From Candidatus Eiseniibacteriota bacterium (GTDB taxonomy: Bacteria; Eisenbacteria; RBG-16-71-46; CAVPCR01): DNA of 64,000 bases. The stretch lies in contig CAWGMA010000003.1 of the NCBI GenBank assembly GCA_963823555.1, forward strand, positions 149,970 to 213,969, given 5' to 3'. The translations under genes and the position numbers were made by a program. Of the stretch, positions 7,553 through 47,650 are shown in pieces. The first letter of the stretch is position 1, and every line of letters begins with the position of its first letter. The notes under the pieces are model-generated. The model worked only from the letters and a program-made list of their open reading frames with translations, ran no database searches and had not been told where the DNA came from.

Positions 7553-7831
7553 TCGAACGCTCCAGGAGAGCCACGCCGGGGCGCTCCAACGAAGTCCCTT
7601 GAGGCAGAGCGCAGACCAACCTGCCGCCTCTGGCGGGTGCAGTCCGTAGTCCTTTCCCTGGCAGGCCCCGTGCCGAAAAGGATGCAGTCATGATAAATAT
7701 GTAACTTATTGTCATTTCAATGGTAATGGGCTTGACGCAGGCGAAAGGAGGCCATTCTTGCGGACAAACTGTCGACGCGCCAGGTGGTTGCCCGGCCATG
7801 TCGTCACCGTCGAGGGCGTACGGCCCCGGGA

Positions 7832-8362
7832 TCAAGGAGACAGGGGGGTGGTGCCCGGAGAGGGATAGGGTGGGATGTGGACCCGGCGGTCCCGGTCGGC
7901 CACGACCAGGTGGGCGGAGTCGCCCCAGGAGTGAGGGATGTTCGCGGTGTCGAAGGGGTACCGCCCCTCGTCTTCCGGGTCGTAGGTCCGACTCGTGATG
8001 TAGAAGAGGTGGGCCTGCGGGCTCTTCACCTTGCAGCCGTGGGCTACCCCGGGGGGAATTCGCAGGATCTGAGGGGCCGCCTCCTTGAGCCGGAACTGCA
8101 TGAGGGTGCGATGCGTGGGGCTCGACGAACGAAGATCCCACAGCGCCACGTCCAGCTCACCGATGGCGACGTACCACCAATCCACCTGCCGATGATGGAA
8201 GTGCCAAGCCTTGACCACGTTCTCCGCCATGAGGCTGTGGCTCCACTGGGCAAATCCCTCCTGGAAGAAGGGATCGCTGGCGCGGATGAGCTCACGGAAG
8301 AAGCCGCGAGTATCGGGATGGGTGACCAGGGACTTGAACTCGACGCCTTGAATCATGCGGGT
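7832..8362 (-). CDS. dTDP-4-dehydrorhamnose 3,5-epimerase-like cupin (RmlC family)
   Basis: RmlC-like motifs are present: ...WHFHHRQVDWWYVAIGELDVALWDLR...IPPGVAHG... The in-frame ATG at 8362 gives about 176 aa. The maximal ORF (to 9004) has an implausible N-terminal extension. Confidence 0.65.
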   Translation of the reverse strand, partial: TRMIQGVEFKSLVTHPDTRGFFRELIRASDPFFQEGFAQWSHSLMAENVVKAWHFHHRQVDWWYVAIGELDVALWDLRSSSPTHRTLMQFRLKEAAPQILRIPPGVAHGCKVKSPQAHLFYITSRTYDPEDEGRYPFDTANIPHSWGDSAHLVVADRDRRVHIPPYPSPGTTPLSP

Positions 8363-10176: not shown

Positions 10177-11087
10177 CGGCGATCGCTCCAGGTGGAGGAC
10201 CGCTCCTCGTGTTCGATCAGATTGCGGATCATCTGTCCGCGTCCCACCGCCGCTAGCGCCACGCCACCGAGGATGAGCATCGCGGCGACGAGAAGCCGCA
10301 GCGTGGGTTCCTCGGCGAGGAAGATCACTCCACCAAGGGCCGCCAGCACCGGCACCGTGAGCTGGACGACCGCCGCCCGGGTGGCGGTCATGGCGGGGAG
10401 AGCGGCATACCAGACGACGTATCCGAGCCCGGAGGTGATGGCTCCCGAGACGATCGCGAGTATCGTACCGCGCGTCGAGGTGTGGAGTGTGGGCAGGCGG
10501 ATCAGGGCCAGCGCTGCGACCAGCGGCAGCGACCGGACGAAGTGGTCGGTGGTGGCCGCCATGGGGTCGACGGCGGTGCGGCCGCGCAGCGAGTAGATTC
10601 CCCAGGCGATGCCGGCCATGGCCATGAGCAGGGAGCCGGAGGTGGGTGGTGCCTGGATGCCCGGGCGCACCAGCACGACGAGCCCGACGATGGCGACCGT
10701 GATGCCCATCCACTGCATCGGGTGAGGTCGCTCGCCGGATCTGAGTCCGGAGAGGATCATGGTGGCCTGGACGGCGCCGAAGAGCACGAGCGCCCCCACT
10801 CCGGCCGTGAGCTTCACGTAGGCGAAGGAAAACGCGGCGGCGTAGACGAACAACATGACCGTCGAGGTCCAGGTCCCGGAAACTCCCACCGGGCGCCTGT
10901 GCCCGAGGGCCACGGCGATCGCCCACAGGGTGATGGCGCCGGCGGCGAGGCGCAGCGCCGTGAAGGCAGCGGGATCGATCGATGCGGGGCCGAGAGCGAG
11001 CCGGCAGAGGACCGAGTTCGCGGCAAAGGCGACGAGCGCGCCGAGGGTCAAGCCGACCGTGCTCAAGGCGCCGCGTCCGGCCATCAC
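10173..11087 (-). CDS. DMT (EamA) family transporter
   Basis: Ten predicted TM helices in two EamA-like halves. Confidence 0.8.
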   Translation of the reverse strand: MMAGRGALSTVGLTLGALVAFAANSVLCRLALGPASIDPAAFTALRLAAGAITLWAIAVALGHRRPVGVSGTWTSTVMLFVYAAAFSFAYVKLTAGVGALVLFGAVQATMILSGLRSGERPHPMQWMGITVAIVGLVVLVRPGIQAPPTSGSLLMAMAGIAWGIYSLRGRTAVDPMAATTDHFVRSLPLVAALALIRLPTLHTSTRGTILAIVSGAITSGLGYVVWYAALPAMTATRAAVVQLTVPVLAALGGVIFLAEEPTLRLLVAAMLILGGVALAAVGRGQMIRNLIEHEERSSTWSDRR

Positions 11088-14397: not shown

Positions 14398-14611
14398 CGA
14401 CCGACTCCTCGGCTAGGTGACCTGGGTTTCCCCGGATGCGGGATACCCGGCGATGATAGCGCAGATGGGATGGCACCGAAACGCGCTGCAGGACCCGAGG
14501 ATGGGGCTGCGGGGCAGCGCGACCGGTGCTCGCGCCCCTGAGGCCGCCGTTGCCCCATCCGGCCGCGGGGTCTAACATGAATGGCATCTGGAGCCGTTCG
14601 AGGAGGTCCCC

Positions 14612-16777
14612 ATGCGCCGCGCATCGCCGCCGGCCCGCCCTGCAAGCGCCGAATCCCCTCCTGAAGGCGACGCCCACGCCGGGCGAGGAGCCCCTGCGCC
14701 TTCCGCCGCGACGGCTGCGAACGGCGCCGCCGAGGGCGAGCGCGCCCAGGTCTTCAGAGCCCTCGTCGAGAATCTCGACCGCATCTTCTGGGTCATCACC
14801 CCGGACCTGACGCGAATCATCTACGTGAGTCCGGCATGCGAGCGGGTCCTCGGCCGCACCCGGGCGAGCATCTATGCGAATCCCATGTCGTGGATCGAGG
14901 CCATGCACCCGCATGATCGATCTCAGGTCCTCGATGCGATCAATCGCCGCGTACGTGGGCTGCCGGTGCCGGATCACCAGGTATTCCGGGTCACCCGTCC
15001 CGACGGTGGAACCCGCTGGTTGCGCAGCCAGGGGCTCCTGGTGCCCGCTCCCGATGGCGGATGGTGGTACATCGGTGTGGCCGAGGACATCACCGAGCTC
15101 AAGCGCGATGCCGACGCCGAGGGCGAGCGCGCCTCGATGTTCCGCATGATGACCGAGCAGCTGCCAGCGGTCATCTGGACGATGGGGCGGGATCTCGTCT
15201 TCACGTCGAGCAACGGTCGCGGGCTGGTCGCTCTCGGTCGCGTTCCGAACGAGGTCGTCGGGATGACGATCTGGGAATACTTCGGGACCGATGATCCGGA
15301 CTTTCCTCCCATTGCTGCGCATCGCCGGGCCCTGACCGGGGAGAAGGTCTCCTACGATAGCGAGTGGCAGGGACGCACGTTCACGTCCCATCTCGAGTCG
15401 CTGTGCGATCCGGCCGGTCGCGTGGTGGGTGTTCTCGGTCTCGCGCTGGATGTGACCGAGCGCCGCCAGGCCGAGGTCGAGGCCCGGGCCGCCCATGAGG
15501 CGCTCCGGCTGGCGCACGAGAGCTTGCGCCGGGCTCATGACGACCTGGGGCACATCAACGAGGAGCTCGAGAGCCGCATCCTGGAGCGAACGGCCGCGCT
15601 CCAGCTGGCCAACGAGCGGCTCGAGCGGGAGGCGGGTGAACGCCTGCGTGTTGAGGAGTCGCTACGCCGCAGCGTCGAGCTGTACCGTCTTCTGGCCGAG
15701 AACACGAGCGACCTCATCACCCGCCTCGCGGCCGATGGGATCTGCACCTACGTCTCGCCGGCGATCTACGGCATGGCCGGGTATGCGCCGGAAGATCTCC
15801 TGGGTCGCAGCGGCTATGACGTGGTCCATCCTGATGACCTGGAGACGGTGGTGCGGGCCTCGGAGGAGGTGGTGTCCCGCTCGGGCACGGCGACCGTGAT
15901 CTTCCGCTTCCGGATGAAGAGCGGCTCCTACAAATGGGTCGAAGCCATCGGGAAGCGTGTCGAAGCGGCCGCTGGAGAAGCCGGCGAGATGATCATCGTG
16001 GTCCGCGACATCTCCCAGCGGAAGCAGACCGAGGAGCGCGTGGCCCGCCTGCAGCGCGAGCTGGCGCAGGTGGCCCGCCTGTCGACGATCGGGGAGATGG
16101 CGTCTCAGCTGGCCCACGAGCTCAACCAGCCCCTGACCGCCGTGATGAACTACCTCGATGCGGGGCGCCGTCTCCTGCGCCGGGATTGCACCGCCTCCCC
16201 GGAGGCGCTCGCGGCGATGGACGAGGCCGCGGCCGAGGCCCAGCGCGCGGGACACATCCTGCAGCGCGTCAGATCCTTTGCGCGTGGCGGGGAACCCGAG
16301 CGCACCCTGCACGACGTGAACACCCTTGTGAACGAGGTGCTCGAACTGGCGCATGCCGATATTCGCGCGCGCGAGGTGAAGCTCGACCTCGACCTGGCTT
16401 CCGATCTCTCCCTCGTTCGCGTCGATGGCGTGCAGATCCAGCAGGTGATCCTGAACCTGATCCGTAACGGGCTCGACGCCATGGCGGATGGGGACGGGGA
16501 GCGCCGGCTCTCGCTGCGAACGAGGCAATCCGAGAGGTCGGTCGCAGTTGAAGTAGGGGACACCGGGCCAGGCATCCCCGCAGACGTGAGGACTCGGCTC
16601 TTCGAACCCTTCTTCACCATGAAGCCTGGGGGCATGGGGCTCGGGCTCTCGATCAGCCACTCCATCGTCGAGGCCGCCGGCGGCCGCCTGTGGGCCGAGG
16701 AGGGCGAGGGTCCGGGAGCGACCTTCTGCTTCAGCTTGCCGGCCGCGGCCGGCAAGCGATCCCGGGAGGATGCGTGA
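14612..16777 (+). CDS. PAS-domain sensor histidine kinase (FixL-like), 721 aa
   Basis: Three PAS/PAC-like segments followed by an H-box (EMASQLAHELNQPL) and a HATPase domain (DTGPGIP...GGMGLGLSI). A GAGGAGG RBS precedes the start. Confidence 0.9.
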   Translation: MRRASPPARPASAESPPEGDAHAGRGAPAPSAATAANGAAEGERAQVFRALVENLDRIFWVITPDLTRIIYVSPACERVLGRTRASIYANPMSWIEAMHPHDRSQVLDAINRRVRGLPVPDHQVFRVTRPDGGTRWLRSQGLLVPAPDGGWWYIGVAEDITELKRDADAEGERASMFRMMTEQLPAVIWTMGRDLVFTSSNGRGLVALGRVPNEVVGMTIWEYFGTDDPDFPPIAAHRRALTGEKVSYDSEWQGRTFTSHLESLCDPAGRVVGVLGLALDVTERRQAEVEARAAHEALRLAHESLRRAHDDLGHINEELESRILERTAALQLANERLEREAGERLRVEESLRRSVELYRLLAENTSDLITRLAADGICTYVSPAIYGMAGYAPEDLLGRSGYDVVHPDDLETVVRASEEVVSRSGTATVIFRFRMKSGSYKWVEAIGKRVEAAAGEAGEMIIVVRDISQRKQTEERVARLQRELAQVARLSTIGEMASQLAHELNQPLTAVMNYLDAGRRLLRRDCTASPEALAAMDEAAAEAQRAGHILQRVRSFARGGEPERTLHDVNTLVNEVLELAHADIRAREVKLDLDLASDLSLVRVDGVQIQQVILNLIRNGLDAMADGDGERRLSLRTRQSERSVAVEVGDTGPGIPADVRTRLFEPFFTMKPGGMGLGLSISHSIVEAAGGRLWAEEGEGPGATFCFSLPAAAGKRSREDA

Positions 16778-17472
16778 TGTCGGTTGATGCAGTTGATGAA
16801 GCCGTCCCCACCGTGTTCGTGGTCGACGACGATCCGGGCGTGCGCAATTCGTTGCGCCTCCTGCTCGAGACGGTGAATCTCCCGACCGAGACCTTCGCCT
16901 CGGCGCAGGAGTTTCTCGACGCCTGCGACCTCGGGCGACCCGGGTGCCTGGTTCTCGATCTGGCCATGCCGGGGATGAGCGGACTCGAGCTCCAGGAGCG
17001 ATTGAGGGCCGAGCGCTGCATCATTCCCATCATCTTCATCACGGCGCATGGCGAGGTATCCACCGCGGTCCGCGCCATGAAGAAAGGCGCCAAGAACTTC
17101 CTCGAGAAGCCCTTCTGTGGCCAGGCGTTGATCGACATGATCCAGCGCGAGATCGAGGTGAACCGGCAGGAGAGGCTGCAACGGGCCCGGATCCGGGACG
17201 CCGGCGCCCGTCTCGACCTGCTCACCAGGCGCGAGCGGCAGGTACTCGATCTCCTGGTGCGAGGCCTGCCGGTCAAGGCGATCGCCGACGAGCTCGAGAT
17301 GGCCAAGAAGACCTGCGATGTGCATCGTGCGCACATCATGCAGAAGACCGGGGTCAGCTCCGTTCCCGAGCTCGTGCAGCTCCATATCCTCGGATCGCAG
17401 GCCGAGGAGGGCCGCGAGCCGTCAGCCGGTCTGTCAGAGGATTTTCCTGGGCTCCCCTCTGCTAAAGGTTAG
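16777..17472 (+). CDS. Two-component response regulator, FixJ/LuxR (NarL) family
   Basis: REC domain (VFVVDDDPGVRNSL...LVLDLAMPGMSGLEL) followed by a LuxR-type HTH (LTRRERQVLDLLVRGLPVKAIADELEMAKKTCDVHRAHIMQK). Its start overlaps the kinase stop (TGATG). Confidence 0.9.
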   Translation: MSVDAVDEAVPTVFVVDDDPGVRNSLRLLLETVNLPTETFASAQEFLDACDLGRPGCLVLDLAMPGMSGLELQERLRAERCIIPIIFITAHGEVSTAVRAMKKGAKNFLEKPFCGQALIDMIQREIEVNRQERLQRARIRDAGARLDLLTRRERQVLDLLVRGLPVKAIADELEMAKKTCDVHRAHIMQKTGVSSVPELVQLHILGSQAEEGREPSAGLSEDFPGLPSAKG

Positions 17473-17807: not shown

Positions 17808-20800
17808 TTACTGCAGCAACACCATCTTGCGGACAGCCGCCCGGTCCGGCGTGACGAGCTTGTAGAGGTAGATCCCGCTCGCCACCGGCGCACCGCGCTC
17901 GTCCCGTCCGTCCCAGGCCACGACGTGGGTGCCGCCGGCGAGCTGGCCGCTGACCAGGCTGCGAACGGCCCGCCCCGCCACATCGAAGATGGTGAGCGCG
18001 ACCGGCGCTTCCGATTCGAGCGTGAAGCGAATCGTCGTCGCCGGGTTGAATGGATTGGGCGCGTTCTGATCGAGGCCGAAGCGGAACTCGGCGCTTGCCT
18101 CGGAGCCGATACCCGTGGGACCCGCGTTCACGGGAACTCTGAGACTCGCGGCTCCACCCCAGGCCCCACCCTGGTCCTTGGCGCGCACCCACAGGGTCAC
18201 GAAGTCCTCGCCGAAGGTTCCCGCTGGAATCTCCGCCATGACGCCGACCGTGATCGTGCCGAAGTCACCGGTCATGGCCGTGCCGGTGCCGGCCGGGGCG
18301 GGGTTGAGGCCGGCCGACCACTCGGCAGCGAGGATGTTGGAGCCCCCCGTGTTCGCGTCGGTCACGGTGGCCGCGAGGGATGTCGCCTCGCTGGCCCGGA
18401 TGGGCAGCGGATCGACCGCGATCGAGCCCGCCACCACCACCGGTCCGGTCAGATCGCCGCCCGGGAGATGGAGCGTGAGATCTCCGTTCGAGTCATCGCG
18501 CCCGCGGAGAGAGGGCGATCCGTTGTCGGTGATGGCGACTCGGATCCGGTAGCGGGTGCCGTTGGGGAAGCCCGCCGGATTCCAGGAGTAGGGCGGCGGG
18601 CCCGGAGCCGCCGCGACCAGGTTCCACGACTCGCCTCCGTTCGAGCTGACGTGGATGGTCCGCGATGCGACCGTGAATCCGGCGGCCGCCGATTCGGTCC
18701 AGGAGATGGCCACCGGGCCGCTCGTGATCACCTCGCCCCCGTCCGGCCCCGTCACGGTGACATCCGGATGATCGTGGCCGATGAGCCAGATCAGGGTCCG
18801 GTCGAGGATGTCCGCTCGCGCCTCGTCATCGGGGACAACGGCATTCAGATGCGCCCACTCGTAGAAGTTGGTGGAGATCTTCGTCGGCTGCCCACCCCAC
18901 ACGGCACTACCGGGATCACCCGCAGGCATTGCGCCTGTGAAACGAATGGCAATGTCATCGGGAGAGGTGTCGTTGTTCCGCCAGCTGGCCAGCGCGGTGC
19001 CGCCGACCGGGTTGGGGTTGATCTCGTCGCCGGCGGCCCCCGAACGGTGCGGCGTGTAAGGAATGCCTGCGGTGTAGGTGCCGCTGATCGGGTCGCCGGC
19101 GATGCCGAGGACCGAGCTCCAGGTCGCCGGGTCGGCCTGCCAGATGGCCTTGAGCTCGGTCTCGAACCAGGCCTTTCGCGCCGGGGAGTAGTCGGGAGAG
19201 CTCGGTTCCGAGAAATCCCAGGCCACATCGTGGGAGAAGATGGCCCAGCGGGCTCCGCCGGCGTTCAGGGCGGTGAGCGTGTCACGCGCGGCATCGGTGA
19301 TCACCGGGTACTGCTCGAGGCCCGGCTGCCAGACGACGGCCTTGAAGGAGCGCAGTCCGGAATCGAGATTGCCCAGGCGCGGCGGGCTGGCGAGAGCTCC
19401 CTCCCAGATCGCGTGGGCCCACCCGCGGGACGAGAGCGCCGTCTCGTAATAGCCCCTCTTGTCGAAGGAGCTGTCGGTGATGACCACGAGAACATCGCGT
19501 CGCGAATCGGTCGTGAAGCGGTAATGGACTCCCCCCGCGTCGTCGCGCACGCCGTTCCCCTGATGATCCACGGATTCGACGTCGAAGTAATAGGTCTGGT
19601 TCGTTGCGAGCCCGGTGATCGTGACCGCGTGCGTGGTGACCAGGGCCGGCTCGAGCTCGGTCTCGGCGCCGAGGAGCGGCGTCGTCCCGTAGTAGACCCT
19701 CGAGCTCGCGGGCGTTGAGGTGAGCCACGTGATGGTGGCTCCATCCTGGCTCTGGTTGCCGGCGTGCACTGCGGTGATCACAGGACCCAGGAGATTGACC
19801 GTGGCGCGGGCCGCGATTGGATTCGGGTCGAGGTAGGTCACGGTGATCTCGTCGCCATTCGACACCTGGATGCGACCGTCCGCCGCCGGAGCGGCGAGGG
19901 AAATCGGGATCGCGCCGGTGAAGATGCCGTCCCCCCCGTCGAGGCTCACCACTTCCGGCGTCGACTCGGTGGTGGAGCTGACGCTCACGGTCAGCGGCAG
20001 CGCTGCATCCGGGTCGGTGACGCGGATGGCCACCGTGTCCTCGGCGCCGTAGGCGGCCTGATTCAGCTCGACCACGGCGAGGCCGCTCGCCAGCCCACCG
20101 GTGACCACCAGCGCGAAAGGCTGCGGGCCGAAGGGAACGTTCGCGGCCTCCACCCTGAGGATCCACGTGCCCGCGGATGGCAGGTTGCGCTGGACGCACT
20201 CCTCGACGTTGATGGCGTCGGCGGTCCCGCCGGTCGACGACTGGCCGGCGGCATAGAAGTTGCCGCGGTAGACCGCTCCACCCGGCTCGGTGGCGATGAG
20301 GTCGAGGTTGTTGACCAGGTTGATCGCCGCGGCCGGCGTCGAGGGGTAGTCGGTCCAGACCAGGGTCGCCTCGATCGGCTGCGTCGCGTCGGTGACCTCG
20401 ACCGCGAATTCGACATACTCGCCGGTGAGAAGGCCGGTCGTGAAGTCCACGAGCGCCGTCCGCCGGGTGTCACCGGCGAAGTAGAGCACGTTGTCGGTGA
20501 GCACGCGGCCCCAGCCGATGCGATTGGAGGGGATCGAGTAGCCGCTGACCGAATTGTCCCCGGAGTTGACCACCATGGCCTTGAGCAAGGCCGCCGACGG
20601 CGTGAAGCCGTTGGCCGGCACCTTGGCGCCGGTCGGGTACCAGCCCTCGGTCAAGTACTGGCGCATCAGCGCGGCGGCGCCCGCCATGGCCGGCGTCGCC
20701 ATGCTGGTGCCGGAGAGCGAGGCATAGGAGGCGTCCCCGCTGAAGAAGGCGCTCGAGACCGCGACCGCCGGTGCGCAGACGGTCGGCTTCAGTCGGCCGT

Positions 20801-22247
20801 CGTCCGCCGGGCCCCCCGAGGTCGAGCTGTAGATGGTGTTGGCCGCCGTGCCGTTGCCGGTTCCGCCGGCCGATACGCAGTTCTTGGCGGTTGCCGGGCT
20901 TCCCACTGTCCCCGTGCCGCCCGAGTTGCCGTCGGCGAAGAAGGGGAGGAAGTCGGGGTGCTCCCACATGAACTGGTCGACCGTCATGGCCTGGAAGTCG
21001 TAGTCGCCGGCAGCGGCTGATCTGCTCCACGAGTTCGACATGATGCGCGCCCCGCCCGCGGCATTCCCGGTGTAGGGGAGGACGAGGAGATCGTTGAGGT
21101 CGATCGGCACGTAGATCGCGACCGGGTCGCTGCCACCGCCATCGCAGAAGTAGAGCTGCGCCGCGGGCGCCATGCCGTCGCGGAGATCGGTGGCGAACGG
21201 TGAGTCGTCCCCGGCGACGGTGCAACCGGTGTGGGTGCCGTGTCCGCTCTCGTCGCCGAAGAGGATGCGCGGATCCTCGTTCGTCTTCACATAGGCCACG
21301 AGCTTGCGATGATCCGGGTACTGGCCGTAGCCGGTGATGGAGATCACGGGATCGCGGAACTGATTGTGCGTGGTGCGGATCCCCGAGTCGGCCGTCGAGA
21401 CCATCTGGCCCTCGCCGCGGATGCCGAGGTCCCAGATGCGGCGGTCCGAGCTGACCCAGGTCTGCACCACCCACTGCGCGTTCGAGTTGACGATGCGGTT
21501 CGGGTGCCAGGGCTCGATCCATGCCACCGCCGTCTCCCGCGCCAGGTCGGGTAGGATGTCGCTTCCGGCCTGGAAGCGGATGAGCTGGTTCCGCCCGCGC
21601 GAGCGCTCGACGACGTTGCCGCCGAGGGTGGCGATGCGCGCGGCGATGATGTCGGCGGGTTCGCCGTCGAACACCTGGAGGACGTAGCTGTCCCCCCGGC
21701 GGCCGGGCGCCATCTCGGGAGCGGCCGCCAGCTTGTAGGCCGGGTGGTAGGCGCCGGTCCACTCGACTCGGGGCATGCGCGCGATGGTCTCGCGCGCGCC
21801 GGCGGGAAGGCGGACCAGGAAGGCGTCGTGCGGGAGATAGGCATGGATGCGGCCGCCGAGGGATTCGAGATCAGCCTTCCATTCGGCCTCGATCGGGCCG
21901 GCGAACTGGACGATGAAGTATCCCGCCGCGTCGGATCCGGGGTCGCCGCGGAGGGCATCCGGAAGAGGGGGCTCGCCCATGCGGGTGTCGAAGCGGATAC
22001 CGCTGGCAAGGGTGATCATGGTCCGGTCGGCTACGGGATCGGGCTGGGTCCGCCCGCGACGGATCACCGAGATCCGGTCCCCGTGGCCGCCGGGCTTGCT
22101 CTCCATCCTCGAGGTGAAGGCGGGGCCTGGCGTGTTCGCCACCCGGTTGGCGCTTTCTCCGGACAGGGCATGAAAGGCGATCGCGAATGCCGCCAGGGCC
22201 ACGCAACCGAGGAAACGCAGAGAGCGATCCAGTGTCGGGCGATGCAT
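17808..22247 (-). CDS. Secreted S8 family serine peptidase (subtilase) of about 1480 aa, with a FlgD-Ig/T9SS-like C-terminal domain
   Basis: Signal peptide MHRPTLDRSLRFLGCVALAAFAIAFHA. Subtilase catalytic motifs are present: the Asp region, GHGTHTGCTVAG and SGTSMATPAMAGAAAL. A long beta-rich region follows. The C-terminus reads ...QNAPNPFNPATTIRFTLESEAPVALTIFDVAGRAVRSLVSGQLAGGTHVVAWDGRDERGAPVASGIYLYKLV. Confidence 0.9.
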   Translation of the reverse strand: MHRPTLDRSLRFLGCVALAAFAIAFHALSGESANRVANTPGPAFTSRMESKPGGHGDRISVIRRGRTQPDPVADRTMITLASGIRFDTRMGEPPLPDALRGDPGSDAAGYFIVQFAGPIEAEWKADLESLGGRIHAYLPHDAFLVRLPAGARETIARMPRVEWTGAYHPAYKLAAAPEMAPGRRGDSYVLQVFDGEPADIIAARIATLGGNVVERSRGRNQLIRFQAGSDILPDLARETAVAWIEPWHPNRIVNSNAQWVVQTWVSSDRRIWDLGIRGEGQMVSTADSGIRTTHNQFRDPVISITGYGQYPDHRKLVAYVKTNEDPRILFGDESGHGTHTGCTVAGDDSPFATDLRDGMAPAAQLYFCDGGGSDPVAIYVPIDLNDLLVLPYTGNAAGGARIMSNSWSRSAAAGDYDFQAMTVDQFMWEHPDFLPFFADGNSGGTGTVGSPATAKNCVSAGGTGNGTAANTIYSSTSGGPADDGRLKPTVCAPAVAVSSAFFSGDASYASLSGTSMATPAMAGAAALMRQYLTEGWYPTGAKVPANGFTPSAALLKAMVVNSGDNSVSGYSIPSNRIGWGRVLTDNVLYFAGDTRRTALVDFTTGLLTGEYVEFAVEVTDATQPIEATLVWTDYPSTPAAAINLVNNLDLIATEPGGAVYRGNFYAAGQSSTGGTADAINVEECVQRNLPSAGTWILRVEAANVPFGPQPFALVVTGGLASGLAVVELNQAAYGAEDTVAIRVTDPDAALPLTVSVSSTTESTPEVVSLDGGDGIFTGAIPISLAAPAADGRIQVSNGDEITVTYLDPNPIAARATVNLLGPVITAVHAGNQSQDGATITWLTSTPASSRVYYGTTPLLGAETELEPALVTTHAVTITGLATNQTYYFDVESVDHQGNGVRDDAGGVHYRFTTDSRRDVLVVITDSSFDKRGYYETALSSRGWAHAIWEGALASPPRLGNLDSGLRSFKAVVWQPGLEQYPVITDAARDTLTALNAGGARWAIFSHDVAWDFSEPSSPDYSPARKAWFETELKAIWQADPATWSSVLGIAGDPISGTYTAGIPYTPHRSGAAGDEINPNPVGGTALASWRNNDTSPDDIAIRFTGAMPAGDPGSAVWGGQPTKISTNFYEWAHLNAVVPDDEARADILDRTLIWLIGHDHPDVTVTGPDGGEVITSGPVAISWTESAAAGFTVASRTIHVSSNGGESWNLVAAAPGPPPYSWNPAGFPNGTRYRIRVAITDNGSPSLRGRDDSNGDLTLHLPGGDLTGPVVVAGSIAVDPLPIRASEATSLAATVTDANTGGSNILAAEWSAGLNPAPAGTGTAMTGDFGTITVGVMAEIPAGTFGEDFVTLWVRAKDQGGAWGGAASLRVPVNAGPTGIGSEASAEFRFGLDQNAPNPFNPATTIRFTLESEAPVALTIFDVAGRAVRSLVSGQLAGGTHVVAWDGRDERGAPVASGIYLYKLVTPDRAAVRKMVLLQ

Positions 22248-22450
22248 GAATACCTCTTCCGCTGGCAACGGGGGTCGGGGGTGCCGGATCCATCCGGCCC
22301 CGGGGGCTTCTGGGGCGTCTGGGCTGCCCCTTCCTGGCGGTAGCAGTGGATCATAGCCGAGCCCCCGCCGGGGAGCCAGTGGCAGGTCGGCAGCCGCCGC
22401 ACCATCCGTTGCGCTATGCTCCAGCGAGATCGGTCCCGGTCGAGAAAGTG

Positions 22451-25003
22451 ATGAAGGCAAGGGGCTTTCGGGGTTCGGGCTTTCTCCTGGCAGTTCTGGC
22501 GGCAGCCATGCTGCCCGCCGCCATGGCGCGCGCGGCCGGTCCGCCCTTGAAGCCGGCGCCGGTTCTCACGATCGAGCGGGCCACACGTCAGGAGATGCCC
22601 ACCCGCACCTTCGACGTGCACCATCTGAAGCTCGAGCTCGCGCTGGATCCGGAGGCCGGGCGGATCTCCGGCGAGGCGACCCTGACCCTGAGCCCGCTCA
22701 GCGGTTCGATCACCGAGGTCCCGCTTCATGCCGCGGACCTGGCCATTGAAGCCGCCTGGATCGAACGGGAAGGGACCATCGACAGCGCGGGCACCGCAGT
22801 CGAACCCGGGCTCCTGCGCGTCGCCCTGCCGCGAAGCGCCGCCCCCGGGGAGACGCTCCGGGTGCGGGTGCGCTACACCGCGCATCCTGCGACCGGTCTC
22901 ACCTTCGTCGCCGCCGATCCCGCCGGCGGCCGCTCGCTCCAGATATGGAGCCAGGGTGAAGCCGAGGAGAATCGCTTCTGGTATCCGGCGTGGGACTACC
23001 CCAATGACCGGGCGACGAGCGAGCTCGTGGTCACGGTGCCGGAAGGCCTCACCGCGGTCGGCAACGGCCTCCTGGTCGCCCGGCGCGAAAACCCAGATCG
23101 CACCGTGACGTTTCACTGGCGCGAGGACCATCCCCACGTCAACTACCTGTTCTCCCTCGCCGTGGGCGATTTCGTCCGGCTGCCGGCGCAGGCCGGCGAG
23201 GTTCCGCTCGAGGTCTATGTCGAGCGCGGGCTCGAACCGCTCGCCGAGCGGAGCTTCGGCCACACCGCCGATATGGTGCAGACGTTCGCCCGGGCTTTCG
23301 CTCATCCCTATCCGTTCGAGAAGTACGCCCAGGTCACGGTGCGCGACTTTGCCTACTGGGGCATGGAGAACGTGAGCGCCACGACGCTGATGGAGCGGAC
23401 CCTGCACGATGAGGCCGCGCACCTCACGTACACCTCGGACGACCTCGTGGCGCATGAGCTGGCGCATTCCTGGTTCGGCAACATGATCACCTGCCGGAGC
23501 TGGAGCCAGCTCTGGCTCAACGAGGGTTTTGCGACCTACGCCGAGGCGATCTACTACGAGGCCCGGTGGGGAGAGGAGGGCCTGGTCGACCGCCTGCTGA
23601 ATGACCGCGAGAACTACCTCGAGGAGTACGAGGAGGACTACCGGCGGGCCATCGTCACCGATGTCTTCGTCGAACCGGTGGACCTCTTGGATGCCCACAC
23701 CTACAGCAAGGCAGCTCTGGTCTTGCACATGCTGCGGAAAGAGCTCGGCGAGGAGGTGTTCTGGACGGCGCTCCACCGCTATGTCGCCGCCTTTGCCTGG
23801 AGGGAAGTCGAGACATCCGATCTGCGTAGGATCTGCGAGGAAGTGTCGGGGCGCGATCTCGGCGTGTTCTTCGACCAGTGGCTCTACCGCAGCGGCCACC
23901 CTGTGCTCGCGGCGAGCTGGTCCTGGGACCGCGAGCTCGGGCAGGTCGAAATCGAGATCGAGCAGACTCAGGGAGTCGACGATTCGCCGTTGTTCTTCGA
24001 CACGGCGCTCGACATCCGCATCGTGACGGCGGTTCCGGACGCCGGCCGGCCGGAGGTCGTGGACCATCGCGTGCGCCTCCGGGGCGCGCGGGAGACGTTC
24101 CATTTTCCGGCGGCGGCGCGTCCCAGCTTCGTCCAGCTCGATCCGGCCGGCTGGCTCCTCGCCGAGATCGACTTCCAGAAGCCGGCCGCCGAGTGGGCGC
24201 TCGAGCTGGCCAGCACCACGGAGGTTCTGGGGCGCGTGGCGGCGGTTCGCGCGCTCGGTGCATTCCCCGGAGACACGACGGCGCTCGCCGCGCTCGCCCG
24301 TGCCCTGCGCGAGGACACCTCGCGGCACGTGCGCGCCCGGGCCGCGGCCAGTCTCGGCGAGCTCGGCACCGAATCGGCGCTCGACACGCTGGCCAGCGGA
24401 CTGGCCGATCCCGATGCGCGTGTCCGCCTGGCCGTGGCCACGGCGCTCGGCGAATTCGCCTCGGCGCGCGCGGCGGACCGCCTGCTCGATCTCATCGACC
24501 GCGATCCGAGTCCGTATGTGGTCGGCGCCGCCGCCGAGGCGCTGGGTGCCACCGGGGATGTACGGGCGCACCAGCGTCTCTTGCATCTCCGGCAGCGGAG
24601 CGCCCACGCCGACGAGATCGCGCGTGGCGCCTACGCCGGCCTTGCCGCCCTCGAGGATGAGGCCGTGCTGCCGGATCTCATGCGCGGCACAGGCGAGGAC
24701 ATACCGGGTGAGGCCCGGCGCGCGGCGATCCTTGGGCTCGGCACCCTGGCATCTGAGTTGCCCGAGCGACGACCGGAGATCCAGGCGCGGCTCGTGGGGC
24801 TTCTCGACGCGCCGTTGCTCGACACCCGGCTCGCCGCGATCGAGGCCATGGGGGAGAGCGGGGATCCGGGTGCCCTGCCGGTGTTGAGCCAGCTTGGACG
24901 GAGCGCGTGCGGGGAGTTAGTGCGAGCGACGGCACGGCATGCTGCCTGGCACGTCGCCCATGCCGAGGATTCAGCCGGCAAGACCGCGGACAAGGAGGAT
25001 TGA
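22451..25003 (+). CDS. M1 family zinc aminopeptidase (aminopeptidase N-like) with C-terminal HEAT repeats and signal peptide
   Basis: Signal peptide [28 protein letters not shown]. The M1 zinc motif [10 protein letters not shown]...WLNEGFATY (HEXXH-E) is present. The C-terminal approximately 250 aa are HEAT/PBS-like repeats (...[13 protein letters not shown]...[16 protein letters not shown]...). Confidence 0.9.
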
Positions 25004-25005: not shown

Positions 25006-25143
25006 ATGATCATGACCACGACGCCGACCATCGAGGGCAAGCGCATCGCCGACTACAAGGGAGTGGTGACGGGCGAAGCGATCCTCGGCGCCAACGGCAG
25101 CATGCTCATGGTGAGCGTGAGCGGCACCGCCGTCGTCATCTAG
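25006..25143 (+). CDS. YbjQ/UPF0145-like mini-ORF of 44 aa, internally collapsed
   Basis: [30 protein letters not shown]|[15 protein letters not shown] matches the N-terminal and C-terminal strands of roughly 105-aa YbjQ (DUF74) proteins, but the central approximately 60 aa are absent. Starts 3 nt after the M1 peptidase stop. Confidence 0.4.
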
Positions 25144-25679
25144 CGCACGGTGAAGGTGGCGCTCGAACCACCGAGCGGCACCGTCGTCGACCCGCCGTTG
25201 ACGCCCGTGGCGCTGGCGACGCGGAGGGATGAGGTCCCGGTGGCCGCGTTGCTGGCGACCTCGACCGTGGCGGTGACCACGATCCCGTCGCCGGGCGGGA
25301 TCTCGGATGTGCCATTCAGGTCCACGAGGATCACGCGGGCCAATCCGCCCGCGATCTCGTTCACCTGAGCGTCGAAGTCCGCGGCGCGGGCGCCGGCGCC
25401 GGCCGCGGTCACGCTCAGAAGGGCGGCGTCATAGCCGAGGTCGAATTGCAGCCCGGTGAGCGAGCTCGTGTTCTCGAGCCGGAAGCTCACCGTGACGGCG
25501 GCTCCTGGCGCCCCGGCGGCATCATCGATGCGAAGGACGTTCGTCAGGTCGGGGGTGAAGGGTGGCGGCCCGTTGCCATCGTCGTCATCACCCCCGCCGC
25601 AGCCGGCAAGGAGAATGAAGGAGAGAACCGCCGTGGCAAGAGCGCACCGGCGCAGCGAGGGTATCGATCGGACGCTCAT
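25140..25679 (-). CDS. Lipoprotein with cohesin-like domain
   Basis: Lipobox LLAGC|GGG after the signal peptide. The central approximately 130 aa fit the cohesin beta-sandwich pattern ([32 protein letters not shown]...). Start taken at ATG 25679. It lies 62 nt downstream of the dockerin-bearing S8 peptidase. Confidence 0.5.
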
Positions 25680-25741
25680 CGTGGCTGCCAAGGGTTGTCC
25701 TCCTCCTTGCGGTGTGCTCGCCGGGTGATCGGCCGTGTTGC

Positions 25742-28624
25742 TCATCGCACCACCGTGAGCCGCGCGGTTGCACTCTCACCGCCGGCCGTCACGCGTGCCC
25801 AGTAGACTCCTGCCGGCAGCGGCCGTCCCCTGGACCCGCGGCCGTCCCAGACGATCTCATGCCGGCCTGGCGCGCGCGTATCATCGGCCGGCATGGCCAC
25901 CAGCCGTCCCGACACATCATAGATTCCCACGGTAACGCGCCGATTTTCCCTGCCTGGCACCTCGATGGCGATACGGGCGGGACCGGCAAAGGGATTCTGC
26001 GTGGCCGCCCATATCCGTAGCGACGCCGGTGCGCCGCCGCCCGCCGGATCCGGAATGGGGGCGCCGAAGGAGACGGTCCCGGCGACGTGCTCGCCACCCG
26101 GACCGACGAGGTCGAGGCGCAGCGGGCGCCAGGCCGCCGTCTCGGCTCCCGCGGCCGCGACGAAGGGCAGGTTGATGACGGGGTTCCCGCCGCTCAGCGA
26201 ATGCCCGTCGGCGGCGAGCGCCATGAGGCGTGTGGTCCCCTCGGCATCGCGCGGCGAGCCGAGGGCGAGAACGCCGCTCCGCGCGCCGCGCACCGCGGCG
26301 GCGAGTGGTGTCAGGGTGCCTCCTGGCGCCGGCGCCAGGTCGAGCTCGAGCCCCGACACGGGAGCAGCCGCCTGGATCGTGATCGGGAGGATCCATGTCA
26401 CCGCGCCGACCGGCGGCACGGGTGGGTTCGCGAACGCACCGGCCGCCATGATGGCGCGGATCACCAGGACCACGTCACCGACATCGATGATCTCGTCACG
26501 GTTCATGTCCGTGCGATCACGCTCCTCGGGGGTCGGCTGCTGGACCTCCAGGACATAGTCGAGGGCGAGGAGCGCATCGGTGATTTCGAGGACGCCGTTG
26601 CCATCGATGTCGCCGGCGATGGTGGTGTCGGATGCGGCGGCGTTCGCGGCGGCGAGGACATCGAGCTTCCCGTACCCCCATAGAGCGTTGGGCAAGAGAC
26701 CCGTGAAGGCATCGGAACGAGCGGTGGTGGTCAAGGCGCGCTTCAGATCGACGATGTCCCAGTCGGGATGGAGCTCCAGGAGCAGGGCCACGGCTCCAGT
26801 GACATGCGGCGCGGCCTGGCTCGTGCCTTGCTGGATGGCATAGCGGTCGCCGGCGAGGAGGAACATGTTGGGGAACTGCGGAAACGGCGAGGCAAAGCTC
26901 GATGACGGCGACGTCGGCGGAGCATCGACGGAGAAGCAGGAGGCAATCTCCATCCCCGGTGCGCAGAGCTCCGGCTTGATTCTCCCGTCGCGCGTCGGCC
27001 CGGCGTTGGAGAAGGGTGCGATCGCGCCGAAGGCGGCGTTGGGTAGGCCGAGGGTGCGCAGGTCGAAGTGGTTGCCGTCCTTGTCATCCCATTCGATCTT
27101 GGTCGTATGGGCGCCGACGGTGATGGCGTTGCGCGCCGTGCCCGGCTCCGAAACGAAGCCGGTGGAACTGGCGAAGCTGCCGAAGGCGGTGGCGGCTCCG
27201 GGCAGGGTCGGCTCGAAGGTGCTGATGGAGATGTAGGCATCGAAGGGGCCGGCGCCGTTCTCGAGGCGGATCCGCCAGCTGCCGGGCACGGGCTGGGCGC
27301 CGGGGATATCGATGACCAGGATGTTGGCCTCGAAGTCGCCGTTGGCCGGGTTGGCGCCCGCTCCGACGTTCTGGACCAGGATCAGACCGTCCTCGCTGAA
27401 GGTGCCGCTCGGAGCGTTCGACTCACCGGGAGCGAACGGGCCGACGGCCAGTCCGTTGGGCGTGATGACCGTGATCGAGAATCCGGCGAAGGTCTCGTAC
27501 CAGAGGTTGATGAGCACGAAGTCGTTCTGCACGCCGGACGCCGGTACGTAATCCGGGATCGTGAAGCGGAGATCGTTGACTCCGCTCACGTAGTCCGAGG
27601 CGGCATGCTGCGCCGGCAGGCTGCGCTCGTTGCCGGCCGCCGCGACGATGGCCTTTCCCGGCCTGCCGCTGCCCACCAGGTTGTCGATCGCCACCTCCTG
27701 CAGCGCCGAGCCGTCGTGGGCCCCGAAATGGCCGCCGAAGCTCAGATTGGTCACGTAGGGCTGGCCGAGCTCGGCGGCCTTCTGATCGATGAAGGAGAGG
27801 GCGTTGACGACATCGGCCTCGCTCAGGCCCCCCGAGCCCGCGCGATCGCCGTTGACGATGATGAGATCGGCGCCGGGCGCGACCCCTCTCATGCCCGACA
27901 TGACGCGGCCGCCACCGGCGGCGCTGCCGGCGACATGGGTGCCGTGGCCGACGACATCGCGCGCTGTGGCGCCCTGATCGATCTGGGCGGCGGTGAGGAG
28001 CGTGCCGCCGAAGGGGCCGTTGCCCGGCACGCTCAGGTCGAGCAGGAACTTGATGCGGGTCGTGCCGTCGGGATTCTGGAAGTCGGGATGCTCGGTATCG
28101 ATGCCGGTGTCGATGACACCAACGATCACGCCCTCTCCGGTTGCTCCGTACTCCGACCACACGCCGGGGGCGCCCGTGTCGGGAACGCTCAGGTCGTTCA
28201 TGAGGCGCATCCGGCCGGCGGCCTGGACGCGTTCGACCACCGGCAGTCGGGCGATGTCGTCAACAAGAGCGAGGGGCACCGCGCGCGCCGTGGCCACTTC
28301 GCCGATGACCGTATCGATCTCGAGGCCGAGCGCCGATAACGACGTCACATCACCGCCTGCGACGGCAAGGAGGAGATCGGCGACCGGAACCCCGGCCAGG
28401 AGTCGGGCCCCGAGCGCCGACGCAGCCGGGCTCAGCATGGGCGCGCCCCGGCCCGGGCTCGCGGCGGCTTCATAGAGCGGCTCGGCGGCCAGGGCGAGCA
28501 GGGGCTGGACCTTGCGTCCCTCCTCGGGCGAGAGCGAAGGAGCCGCCACCGCGGACGTTGCCGAGATGAGAAGTGCGGCGACCAGCAACCCGGACCGTCG
28601 GGAGACCCTTATCGCGTTCATCAT
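25742..28624 (-). CDS. Secreted S8 family serine peptidase of 960 aa with a type-I dockerin and a FlgD-Ig/T9SS-like C-terminal domain
   Basis: Signal peptide MMNAIRVSRRSGLLVAALLISATSAVAAP. Subtilase motifs are present: VGVIDTGID, HGTHVAGSAAGGG and GTSQAAPHVTGAVALL. A dockerin is encoded at about nt 26470-26640 (GDIDGNGVLEITDALLALDYVLE...TDMNRDEIIDVGDVVLVIRAIM). The C-terminus reads ...NPFAGPARIAIEVPGRENRRVTVGIYDVSGRLVAMPADDTRAPGRHEIVWDGRGSRGRPLPAGVYWARV. Confidence 0.88.
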   Translation of the reverse strand: MMNAIRVSRRSGLLVAALLISATSAVAAPSLSPEEGRKVQPLLALAAEPLYEAAASPGRGAPMLSPAASALGARLLAGVPVADLLLAVAGGDVTSLSALGLEIDTVIGEVATARAVPLALVDDIARLPVVERVQAAGRMRLMNDLSVPDTGAPGVWSEYGATGEGVIVGVIDTGIDTEHPDFQNPDGTTRIKFLLDLSVPGNGPFGGTLLTAAQIDQGATARDVVGHGTHVAGSAAGGGRVMSGMRGVAPGADLIIVNGDRAGSGGLSEADVVNALSFIDQKAAELGQPYVTNLSFGGHFGAHDGSALQEVAIDNLVGSGRPGKAIVAAAGNERSLPAQHAASDYVSGVNDLRFTIPDYVPASGVQNDFVLINLWYETFAGFSITVITPNGLAVGPFAPGESNAPSGTFSEDGLILVQNVGAGANPANGDFEANILVIDIPGAQPVPGSWRIRLENGAGPFDAYISISTFEPTLPGAATAFGSFASSTGFVSEPGTARNAITVGAHTTKIEWDDKDGNHFDLRTLGLPNAAFGAIAPFSNAGPTRDGRIKPELCAPGMEIASCFSVDAPPTSPSSSFASPFPQFPNMFLLAGDRYAIQQGTSQAAPHVTGAVALLLELHPDWDIVDLKRALTTTARSDAFTGLLPNALWGYGKLDVLAAANAAASDTTIAGDIDGNGVLEITDALLALDYVLEVQQPTPEERDRTDMNRDEIIDVGDVVLVIRAIMAAGAFANPPVPPVGAVTWILPITIQAAAPVSGLELDLAPAPGGTLTPLAAAVRGARSGVLALGSPRDAEGTTRLMALAADGHSLSGGNPVINLPFVAAAGAETAAWRPLRLDLVGPGGEHVAGTVSFGAPIPDPAGGGAPASLRIWAATQNPFAGPARIAIEVPGRENRRVTVGIYDVSGRLVAMPADDTRAPGRHEIVWDGRGSRGRPLPAGVYWARVTAGGESATARLTVVR

Positions 28625-45047: not shown

Positions 45048-45139
45048 CTATTACATAATCACTTAGCAAATCTCATATAGTCATGGTAGAATGAAGGGCT
45101 GTGCTGGTGCCGCATCCGTTCACTCCTGGGGGATCGACC

Positions 45140-47650
45140 ATGAGATATCTCATCTTCGCCTTGCTTGCGTCCACGCTTACCTTCGGCGCCGCACATCCAG
45201 CCCTCTCGGCTCAGCCCGGGCAGGCGCTCATCTTGGTCGAGAACCCCGGCCCGCAAACGGCGGCGGCGCTCCTGGCGGAAGACCTCATGGTGGTTCGTGA
45301 CCTGGGCAGCATCCTTCTCGTCGTGGCCTCTCCCGAACGCCTCGCCGCGCTGGATGCCGCGGATCTCGAGTGGCGGATCCTCGACACGAGCCTGGAGGGC
45401 AAGACGTACTACACGGCCGGAGTTCCGGCCGGCGCCGATCTCGCCGCCATCGCGCCCGGGACGCGCGTCTTGTGGTCGGCGGGCACGGATGCTGTCATGG
45501 TCGCCACATCCGAGCAAGTGGATCAGATCTCGGGCGCTTCCATCGAGGTCGCCCGGGTCTTCATGCGCCCGATCCGCGTCCCGGCCGCGGCCCGCCCCCT
45601 GCCGCCGGCAATGGCGCTCGATCCCGATCCGGCGATCCAGCAGATGGTGGACCAGGTCTCGATCGCAGGCGTCACGGCCATGGTCCAGCGCATGCAGAAC
45701 TTCGTCACTCGCCACTCGGCGACGGACAGCGCCGATGCGGCGGCACGCTGGGTCCATGACCAGTTCGTGTCCTTCGGCATCGACAGCGTCTACTACCAGC
45801 ACTGGAGCAGCACCTACAGCGACAACGTCGTCGCCTCCATCCCCGGGACGCGCTTCCCCGAGCGGGTCGTCGTCATCGGCGGCCACTACGATTCGACAAC
45901 CGGATCCTCTACGGCCCCAGCTCCGGGAGCCGATGATGATGCCTCCGGCACCGCCTGCGTTCTCGAGTGCGCGCGCATCCTGAGCCAGTACCCGCACGAC
46001 TACACGATCACCTTCGTCGCCTTCGCGGGCGAGGAGCAGGGCCTTCTCGGCAGCGAGGCCTACGCCAGCCAGGCGCGGACCAACGGCGACGACATCCTGG
46101 GCATGGTCCAGGTGGACATGATCGGGTACCTGCAGGCGGGCGATCTCCTCGATCTCGACATCATCTCCAACTCGGGCTCGGCCTGGATCCGCGACCTCGT
46201 AGTCGAGGTCGGCGGCTTCTACGTCCCGGGCTTCTCGATCGTGCCCGGTTCGCTGCCAGGCGGGGCCAGCAGCGACCACGCCTCCTTCTGGGCCGCCGGT
46301 TACGACGCCGTCCTCTTCTTCGAGGACAGCGGGGCCTACAGCCCCTACATCCACACCACGAACGATGTGATCGGTGTCAGCTACAACTCGGAGGCGCTGG
46401 CGGAGCGATCGGTCAAGACCGCGGTCGGCCTCCTGGCGACGATGGCGAAGGCGCCGGCCGTGGTCATGACCCACACGCCGCTCGGGAACACGACCGATAT
46501 CCTGAACCCGTATCGCGTGGTGGCCGAGGTCAGCGCCCTCGAGGCTCTCAACCCCGATTCGACCTTCGTCCGCTACTCGACTCAGGCCGGCACCTTCGAT
46601 GTGCCGCTCACCGTGACCGCGAATCCGAACGAGTACGAGGGCTTCATCCCGGCCCAGCAGGGCGGCACCTTCGTCGATTACTACGTCTCGGTCCAGGGCG
46701 TGAGCGGCTACCGGGTGACGAGCCCGGCCGATGCACCGCTCACCTGGCATCGCTTCTTCGTCGGACAGATCACGACGGCGTTCAACGACGAGTTCGAGGC
46801 CGATAGCGGCTGGACCGTCGGGGACACCGGCGACAACGCGACCGCAGGCATCTGGGTGCGCGCCGATCCGGTCGGTTCTTACAGCGGCACCTCCCCGGTG
46901 CAGCCGGAGGACGATCACACGCCGGCCCCGGGGGTCGCCTGCTGGGTGACGGGGAACGCGGCACCAGGGCAGAGCCAGGGTACGAACGACGTCGACAACG
47001 GCAAGACCACGGTCAAGAGCCCGATCTACGATCTCTCCGGGCTCCAGAACGCCGGGGTCCGCTACTACCGCTGGTTCACGAACGACACCGGATCGGGGCC
47101 GGAGACGGACGAGTGGGCGGTGGATGCCTCCTCGGACGGCGGTGCGACCTGGGTGCGGATCGAGACCGCGCTCACCAGCGATCGCAGCTGGCGGCTGGTC
47201 GAGCGCTGGCTCGCGGACTACATCCAGCTCACCTCGCAGGTGCGCTTCCGCTTCATCGCGCGCGACGACTCGCCCGGCTCGATCGTCGAGGCGGCGGTCG
47301 ACGATTTCGCGATCGTCGTCTACGAGCAGCCGTCGTCGGCGGTGTCCTCGCCGGAGCCGGTGGCGCCGCGCCAGGTGGTGCTCGAGCCGGTGAAGCCGAA
47401 TCCCTTCAACCCCTGGACCGAGATCCGCTTCACGGTACCCGAACCGGGAGGCAAGGTGCGGCTCGCCATCTTCGACGTCACGGGGCGGGAGGTGCGCGTC
47501 CTCGCCGATGGCGAGCTCCTGGCCGGCACGACGGCTCTGACCTGGGACGGCCGGGACGGCGCGGGAGCGGCGATGCCCTCCGCGGTCTACTTCTGCCGGC
47601 TCGAGGCGGCGGGCGAGTCGCGTGTGCAGAAGCTCGTGCTCGTGCGGTAG
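45140..47650 (+). CDS. M28 family zinc aminopeptidase with FlgD-Ig/T9SS-like C-terminal domain, secreted
   Basis: Signal peptide MRYLIFALLASTLTFGAAHPALSA. M28 metal-binding motifs are present (HYDS...ADDDASGTA...FAGEEQGLLGS...DHASF). The C-terminus reads ...PNPFNPWTEIRFTVPEPGGKVRLAIFDVTGREVRVLADGELLAGTTALTWDGRDGAGAAMPSAVYFCRLEAAGESRVQKLV. Confidence 0.85.
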   Translation: MRYLIFALLASTLTFGAAHPALSAQPGQALILVENPGPQTAAALLAEDLMVVRDLGSILLVVASPERLAALDAADLEWRILDTSLEGKTYYTAGVPAGADLAAIAPGTRVLWSAGTDAVMVATSEQVDQISGASIEVARVFMRPIRVPAAARPLPPAMALDPDPAIQQMVDQVSIAGVTAMVQRMQNFVTRHSATDSADAAARWVHDQFVSFGIDSVYYQHWSSTYSDNVVASIPGTRFPERVVVIGGHYDSTTGSSTAPAPGADDDASGTACVLECARILSQYPHDYTITFVAFAGEEQGLLGSEAYASQARTNGDDILGMVQVDMIGYLQAGDLLDLDIISNSGSAWIRDLVVEVGGFYVPGFSIVPGSLPGGASSDHASFWAAGYDAVLFFEDSGAYSPYIHTTNDVIGVSYNSEALAERSVKTAVGLLATMAKAPAVVMTHTPLGNTTDILNPYRVVAEVSALEALNPDSTFVRYSTQAGTFDVPLTVTANPNEYEGFIPAQQGGTFVDYYVSVQGVSGYRVTSPADAPLTWHRFFVGQITTAFNDEFEADSGWTVGDTGDNATAGIWVRADPVGSYSGTSPVQPEDDHTPAPGVACWVTGNAAPGQSQGTNDVDNGKTTVKSPIYDLSGLQNAGVRYYRWFTNDTGSGPETDEWAVDASSDGGATWVRIETALTSDRSWRLVERWLADYIQLTSQVRFRFIARDDSPGSIVEAAVDDFAIVVYEQPSSAVSSPEPVAPRQVVLEPVKPNPFNPWTEIRFTVPEPGGKVRLAIFDVTGREVRVLADGELLAGTTALTWDGRDGAGAAMPSAVYFCRLEAAGESRVQKLVLVR

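Follow-up and report, generated by a model that had tools for sequence, protein, structure and literature searches.

The window analysed in this study, a 64-kb stretch of chromosomal DNA with a GC content of ~68% (contig CAWGMA010000003.1, positions 149,970 to 213,969), contains genes for three large peptidases that share a single C-terminal domain (CTD). Two of them are S8-family subtilases, referred to here as S8-1 and S8-2, and the third is an M28-family aminopeptidase, referred to as M28 (Table 1). The catalytic domains were identified with Pfam models (Peptidase_S8 with E 6.5e-34 in S8-1 and E 2e-45 in S8-2; Peptidase_M28 with E 8.2e-32), and in scans of the whole proteins the tails were recognized as FlgD_ig (E 2e-13 in S8-1, 35.1 bits in S8-2, and 34.7 bits in M28). 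In all three cases the CTD ends where the protein ends, with 0 residues beyond it. At the other end of each protein, a reading of the translation by eye reveals a positively charged n-region, a hydrophobic core, and an A-x-A-type site, which are the marks of a putative Sec signal peptide.

Table 1. Features of the window, with strand and domain layout (slash, putative cleavage site; signal peptides of the three tail-bearing peptidases were read by eye from the translation)
Feature	Position	Strand	Description
TypA GTPase	2-1408	-	
S8 subtilase 1 (S8-1)	17808..22250	-	1480 aa, counted from the Met preceding the signal peptide; signal peptide, Peptidase_S8 (aa 279-581), fn3-like region, long unassigned region, CTD
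CTD of S8-1	17808..18074	-	Last 88 aa and stop; ...NAPNPFNPATTIRFTL...IFDVAGRAV...WDGRD...GIYLYKL...RKMVLLQ
Putative Sec signal peptide of S8-1	22158..22250	-	MHRPTLDRSLRFLGCVALAAFAIAFHALS...
M1 aminopeptidase	~22451-25003	+	Sec-type signal peptide, C-terminal HEAT repeats; divergent from S8-1
Cohesin-domain lipoprotein gene	25140..25745	-	PF00963 Cohesin, 49.7 bits; lipobox ...FILLAG/C
S8 subtilase 2 (S8-2)	25742..28624	-	960 aa; signal peptide, split Peptidase_S8, Dockerin_1 (aa 670-725), CTD
CTD of S8-2	25742..26014	-	Last 90 aa and stop; ...QNPFAGPARIAIEV...IYDVSGRLV...WDGRG...GVYWARV...ARLTVVR
Dockerin type I module in S8-2	26450..26617	-	PF00404, 28.6 bits (gathering threshold, 22.9)
Putative Sec signal peptide of S8-2	28544..28624	-	MMNAIRVSRRSGLLVAALLISATSAVA/AP
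M28 aminopeptidase (M28)	45137..47650	+	837 aa; signal peptide, Peptidase_M28 (aa 230-412), unassigned middle region, CTD
Putative Sec signal peptide of M28	45137..45208	+	MRYLIFALLASTLTFGAAHPALSA/QP
CTD of M28	47378..47650	+	Last 90 aa and stop; ...KPNPFNPWTEIRFTV...IFDVTGREV...WDGRD...AVYFCRL...VQKLVLVR

The last ~85-90 residues of the three peptidases align without large gaps and have 18 invariant columns. When the 90-aa tails were compared by BLASTP, S8-1 and M28 were 47% identical (E 3e-26), and S8-1 and S8-2 were 30% identical (E 4e-12). An earlier note on this DNA had proposed that the two subtilases and the aminopeptidase carry the same C-terminal module on unrelated catalytic domains, and these significant alignments between S8 and M28 hosts bear the proposal out. 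The consensus given in that note agrees with the three-tail alignment, and its coordinates (17808-18065, 25742-26000, and 47393-47650) cover the domain, stop codons included; the domain as delimited by a hidden Markov model (HMM) starts some 3-5 codons further upstream. No fourth copy was found when an HMM of the three tails was run against the six-frame open reading frames (ORFs) of the window, where the next match had an E value of 0.7. The same search matched only S8-1, S8-2, and M28; the neighboring M1 aminopeptidase lacks the domain, as the note had stated, although it too has a Sec-type signal peptide.

The three peptidases were scored against curated profile models. FlgD_ig (PF13860; gathering threshold [GA], 27) was passed by all three tails alone, with scores of 50.4 bits for S8-1 and 39.5 bits each for S8-2 and M28. 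TIGR04183, the model for type A domains of type IX secretion systems (T9SS), was passed in whole-protein scans by S8-1 only (31.5 bits against a cutoff of 23; S8-2, 17.8 bits; M28, 20.1 bits), and Por_Secre_tail (PF18962; GA, 27) was passed by none of the tails alone (23.2, 20.5, and 20.1 bits for S8-1, S8-2, and M28, respectively). The earlier assignment to a FlgD-Ig or T9SS type A-like domain is thus upheld, with PF13860 passed in every tail, TIGR04183 passed in one, and PF18962 just missed in all three. The tails therefore belong where two models of a single superfamily meet. In S8-2 and M28, the PF18962 alignments were nearly full-length (residues 7-87 of the S8-2 tail to model positions 4-74 of 75; residues 7-87 of the M28 tail to positions 3-74), and the tails also aligned to the C-terminal ends of the NCBIfam models for PorU and PorZ, which are the CTDs of those proteins. 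Among the best 120 homologues of the M28 protein (precomputed matches), 113 had PF13860, ~39 had PF18962, and 1 had PF18962 alone. Orthologous tails fall on both sides of the thresholds, which shows that PF13860 and PF18962 describe one continuous family.

The closest stand-alone tail matches (45-61% identity) bear the name "T9SS type A sorting domain-containing protein" at NCBI (tails that are 53-57% identical) and "flagellar hook assembly protein FlgD" at the Joint Genome Institute (JGI), where many close matches are automatically given it. Among plasmid records, the closest match was to a protein of Rhodothermus marinus; it spanned 100% of the query with 45.6% identity and was located at the extreme C terminus. 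The JGI name is likely a mis-annotation. We rejected a FlgD identity for the proteins of the window, which are peptidases of 837-1480 aa without the FlgD N-terminal domain; they scored 25-32 bits against the NCBIfam FlgD equivalogs, whose cutoffs are 230-383, and Pfam and NCBIfam scans of the window found neither a flagellar gene nor a FlgD N-terminal domain. A T9SS type B CTD (TIGR04131/PF13585, CHU_C) is likewise C-terminal and Ig-like, and it was rejected because the tails scored well below the GA of 27 for PF13585 (16.8 bits for S8-1 and S8-2 and 13.6 bits for M28, tails alone). Furthermore, type B domains use PorP/SprF-type carriers, of which there is no hint here.

Structural comparison separated a core common to FlgD from the strands that flank it. 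An AlphaFold2 model of the S8-1 tail, with the three-sequence alignment as input, had seven main strands arranged as an Ig-like 3+4 beta-sandwich (pLDDT, 88; pTM, 0.78). Foldseek matched this model first to FlgD (E 3e-4) and to the CTD of PorZ (E 3.5e-4) and then to T9SS substrate CTDs trapped in the translocon of Flavobacterium johnsoniae and to the mirolase CTD. In a sequence search of the PDB, FlgD of Salmonella was the best match (E 4e-10), covering only profile positions 14-79, and the PorU CTD (E 9e-5) was matched over positions 7-89, to within 2 residues of the chain end. These matches indicate that the core of the module is common to FlgD, with five central strands that align and that include D-x-x-G-R-x-V and W-D-G. 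The parts that resemble a T9SS CTD are the initial strand (N-P-F-N-P) and the final one (K/R-x-x-L-V-R), both of which FlgD lacks. In addition, FlgD is a protein of ~130-230 aa with a flagellar context, whereas the tails end large secreted hydrolases.

Two sequence motifs can be compared with experimental work on type A CTDs. The hairpin I-F/Y-D-V-x-G-R-x-V, with D, G, and R invariant in the three tails, matches the beta3-beta4 hairpin F-D-M-N-G-R-R of RgpB, which is experimentally required and in which the Gly at the start of beta4 is essential (PMC11285876). This motif is not specific to T9SS, because FlgD has it too. Near the C terminus of type A CTDs, a Lys is almost invariant and functionally important (PMC10994853; PMC11285876). 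Six residues from the end, S8-1 (RKMVLLQ) and M28 (QKLVLVR) have this Lys, and S8-2 (ARLTVVR) has an Arg.

The position of the module was also examined in other proteins. When 1.84 billion representative proteins were searched with the profile, 389,050 matched at E <= 1e-3, of which 195,933 did so at E <= 1e-10, and positions were examined in the best 150. The end of the profile was reached in 23 of these, 22 of which finish no more than 2 residues from the C terminus of the protein, so that the complete module is almost always terminal, as expected for a sorting signal. In the remaining 127, the match stops at position ~77-83. Most matches that do not reach the profile end lie inside the protein, frequently as arrays with as many as 22 copies, and a further 24 of the best 150 end 10-22 residues before the end of the protein. 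The version that lacks the last strand is an ordinary Ig repeat; the sorting version is told from it by the NPF strand, the K..LVR strand, and the terminal position. Separately, the representative set includes giant proteins (1,250-4,065 aa) with 9-22 tandem internal copies of the module, the last strand missing. Other genomes contain ORFs of ~100-130 aa that consist almost solely of the CTD and begin exactly where the upstream ORF ends (e.g., positions 10001-10309 of locus L103 and 10001-10351 of locus L104); several recurring ones are 102 aa long. Split genes could account for them, or they may be real mini-proteins made up of the CTD alone.

Cargo in related proteins extends well beyond peptidases. 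Ten representatives with a complete terminal module carried lectin-like Laminin_G_3, CotH with LTD, FG-GAP with fn3, BNR, or NHL domains, or Ig repeats only, and 4 of the ten passed PF18962. At two loci from metagenome-assembled genomes (GCA_043808325.1 and GCA_041390305.1), the tail ends an M28 orthologue, which NCBI names "Candidatus Eisenbacteria bacterium," as well as a metallophosphoesterase and a propeller protein with Reg_prop repeats, and it occurs weakly on an FG-GAP/ASPIC protein. Similarly, a DUF1565+FlgD_ig protein lies at the locus of a close relative whose TypA is 86% identical to that of the window. The earlier note had envisaged a sorting machinery dedicated to protease cargo, an idea that does not survive the presence of the module on these varied proteins; we rejected a protease-specific system on the basis of the non-protease cargo in close relatives. 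The tag is a general one, for which proteases are typical cargo and not a special set. Among 238,000 TIGR04183 proteins in UniProt, serine endopeptidases make up 12.2% and metallopeptidases 10.4%, which places them second and third in size among the functional classes (PMC11205867).

Our results suggest that the shared tail is probably a T9SS type A-like CTD, that is, a T9SS-type export signal from a sub-family that Pfam files under FlgD_ig. This reading draws on the homology of the tails, their HMM family, fold, C-terminal position, and motifs, along with the signal peptides read by eye and the range of cargo in relatives. Since the tail belongs to the well-known FlgD-Ig/T9SS type A family, it would be one more, unexceptional instance of an export tag that is already known and not a new system. 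No T9SS core gene lies in the window, and the presence of a T9SS in this genome, its recognition of the tails, and their cleavage are accordingly inferred. Under such a scheme, each peptidase would be taken across the inner membrane by Sec via its N-terminal signal peptide and would fold in the periplasm. The seven-strand Ig-like CTD would then be bound in the outer-membrane translocon, by the SprA/Sov pore and the loops of the PorV carrier; in SprA/PorV, binding of the CTD is largely via hydrophobic surfaces, and the terminal Lys contacts PorV (PMC10994853). Extraction of the protein would follow in a step driven by the proton motive force, and a PorU-type sortase would probably remove the CTD, leading to release of the enzyme or its linkage to the surface (PMC11285876).

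Established type A CTDs, such as those of RgpB, PorU, and PorZ in Porphyromonas gingivalis, mirolase in Tannerella forsythia, and RemA/NucA in F. johnsoniae, resemble the tails in many respects. They share the placement at the extreme C terminus, the length of ~85 residues, the Ig-like sandwich of seven strands, the beta3-beta4 hairpin x-D-x-x-G-R-x-V including its Gly, and the basic residue ~6 positions from the end (Lys in two of the three tails), and their cargo likewise bears N-terminal Sec signals (here, by eye) and includes S8 proteases and metallopeptidases. Unlike these CTDs, the tails begin with N-P-F-N-P and carry W-D-G-R-D...G...P-x-G-x-Y, a pattern typical of FlgD_ig, and their host is not a member of the Bacteroidota.

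Several observations count against this reading. The scores fall below the GA for PF18962 in all three tails and below the cutoff for TIGR04183 in two, and among solved relatives FlgD outscores PorU by sequence (4e-10 versus 9e-5). The module also has internal copies, both as tandem repeats and within a PKD protein of Thiodictyon, a genus outside the Fibrobacteres-Chlorobi-Bacteroidetes (FCB) group. A FlgD_ig-like domain also lies near the C terminus of a protein from Rhizobium, an alphaproteobacterium outside the phyla reported to have T9SS (PMC11285876); this copy lacks the NPF and K..LVR ends. Within the window, T9SS core genes were found neither by Pfam and NCBIfam scans nor by tblastn with GldK or by GldK and GldL HMMs, as the earlier note had held, and no T9SS components were found in ~108 kb of related loci. 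In the literature searched, there was no report of T9SS in Eisenbacteria, Latescibacteria, or the candidate phyla close to Eisenbacteria. Finally, the phylum signals differ. M28+CTD orthologues with 53-59% identity bear the names Candidatus Eisenbacteria/Eiseniibacteriota, Krumholzibacteriia, and Latescibacterota, all candidate phyla of the FCB group. For the TypA GTPase, identity is 80-86% in the closest relatives and falls abruptly to 64-68% in the next, the named ones of which are only Acidobacteriota, Thermoanaerobaculia, Bryobacteraceae, and Nitrospirota; since 64-68% is a saturated plateau, TypA does not settle the phylum, and the lineage seems to be poorly sampled. The description "Eisenbacteria-like" is therefore a tentative one. 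As an aside, six consecutive same-strand ORFs of 215-247 aa without a Pfam match lie upstream of typA in a close relative (locus L105, positions 3630-8216).

One alternative is that the tail is solely a structural or binding domain of the Ig-like FlgD_ig/E-set type, serving, for example, as a spacer, as a substrate- or surface-binding module, or as a folding aid for the peptidase. Against this, the complete module with its last strand is terminal in 22 of 23 cases, and the internal copies lack that strand. Furthermore, the terminal basic residue and the hairpin Gly of type A are present, the many unrelated passenger domains suit a tag better than an accessory to catalysis, and the curated NCBI model labels close tails as T9SS type A. 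We therefore regard a purely structural role as unlikely.

Alternatively, the tail could be a true sorting signal that is read by non-canonical machinery, such as a translocon that has diverged or been reduced, or a different route across the outer membrane, the T9SS core genes of the lineage being missing or no longer recognizable. In line with this, T9SS genes were not found in the searched DNA of the lineage, that is, the window and the related loci (171.6 kb in total for the local GldK and GldL HMMs, which returned nothing). No T9SS Pfam families lay near the M28 orthologues, the short CTD-only ORFs, or the TypA relative, where there were only more CTD proteins. The tails are intermediate between FlgD_ig and Por_Secre_tail, the placement of the phylum is unsettled, and S8-2 has an independent, putative route to the surface through its dockerin and the adjacent cohesin lipoprotein. 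Wider scans seemed to point the same way. The GldK query was a sequence printed in a paper supplement and checked against PorK structures (E 1e-75), and genome contigs were scanned with a GC-biased NFKPxxGDY pattern; this gave 57 loci, namely, 56 GldK genes, nearly all with Bacteroidota names, and 1 chance match. The GldL scan, with a GC-biased motif (G-x-LFK[IL]xH...G...E) over metagenome contigs, gave 40 loci, of which 39 were GldL/PorL that resembled Bacteroidota sequences (by sequence) and 1 was a chance match. Apart from the two chance matches, then, the hits were essentially of Bacteroidota type.

However, these scans are uninformative on the question. Records named Rhodothermus or Salinibacter were absent from both, even though plasmids of the two genera carry this tail and Rhodothermota is listed among the T9SS-bearing FCB phyla (PMC11285876). 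The scans thus say nothing about phyla other than Bacteroidota, and their motifs are probably specific to that phylum. In addition, CTD proteins and T9SS genes co-occur strictly in Bacteroidota (PMC11285876), and those relatives of the cargo that are nearest among the named ones come from the FCB group, for which T9SS has been reported. Non-canonical machinery is, in our estimation, quite improbable. We hold equally low expectations of its more specific form, in which an organism without a recognizable T9SS would have its FlgD_ig-type tail read by diverged or different machinery for outer-membrane export and attachment, and the cohesin lipoprotein would capture at least one cargo, S8-2, by its dockerin in place of anchoring by PorU and anionic lipopolysaccharide. 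The notion that the tails resemble one another by chance or through the composition of a 68% GC genome has nothing beyond the high GC content in its favor and was rejected as having next to no likelihood, given that the E values come from compositionally adjusted BLASTP, that curated HMMs were matched above threshold, and that the matches at E <= 1e-10 run to 195,933 representative proteins.

If the tail is indeed a T9SS type A-like signal, the window adds three predicted cargo proteins from an uncultured, little-studied lineage of high GC content, and it suggests an organism that feeds by surface or extracellular proteolysis. A T9SS in this genome would extend the known range of the system, and its absence would expose a CTD family without T9SS. 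Whether the lineage has a T9SS is where the residual interest lies, with a little added by the dockerin of S8-2 beside a cohesin lipoprotein gene.

The start codon of this cohesin gene overlaps the stop codon of S8-2 (ATGA). Based on domain content and position, the lipoprotein and the dockerin of S8-2 are likely partners, and the dockerin may provide a second means of surface attachment by tethering the protease to the lipoprotein. The arrangement recalls cohesin-dockerin pairs of the cellulosome type in combining a type I dockerin with an adjacent cohesin gene that has a lipoprotein signal. It differs from them in that only one of the three peptidases is involved, the cargo is a protease and not a glycoside hydrolase, and a T9SS-type tail has been added. 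The tail-bearing peptidases are presumably outward-bound, and the M1 aminopeptidase between the two subtilases may be a partner to them in the periplasm.

The peptidase genes form a loose group among housekeeping genes of the window, which include those for TypA, a 2-oxoacid:ferredoxin oxidoreductase, aconitase, a MutS-like protein, and DinB. Just past the 3' end of the convergent S8-1 gene, positions 14576-17472 (+) encode a histidine kinase with multiple PAS domains and a response regulator of the LuxR type, a pair that could regulate the peptidase cluster. Directly after M28 and on the same strand is a gene whose product joins a Ser/Thr protein kinase to beta-propeller repeats of the PD40/WD40-like kind (47760-50498, +). 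A large Lhr-like helicase at 38466-42883 (+) is apparently split into overlapping frames, 38466-40967 and 40091-42883, which could reflect a frameshift, a pseudogene, or an assembly error. At 33825-36895, a gene for a CrtC-like lipocalin protein (hydroxyneurosporene synthase family) adjoins a photolyase-related (DPRP) gene, and together they hint at light-related functions.

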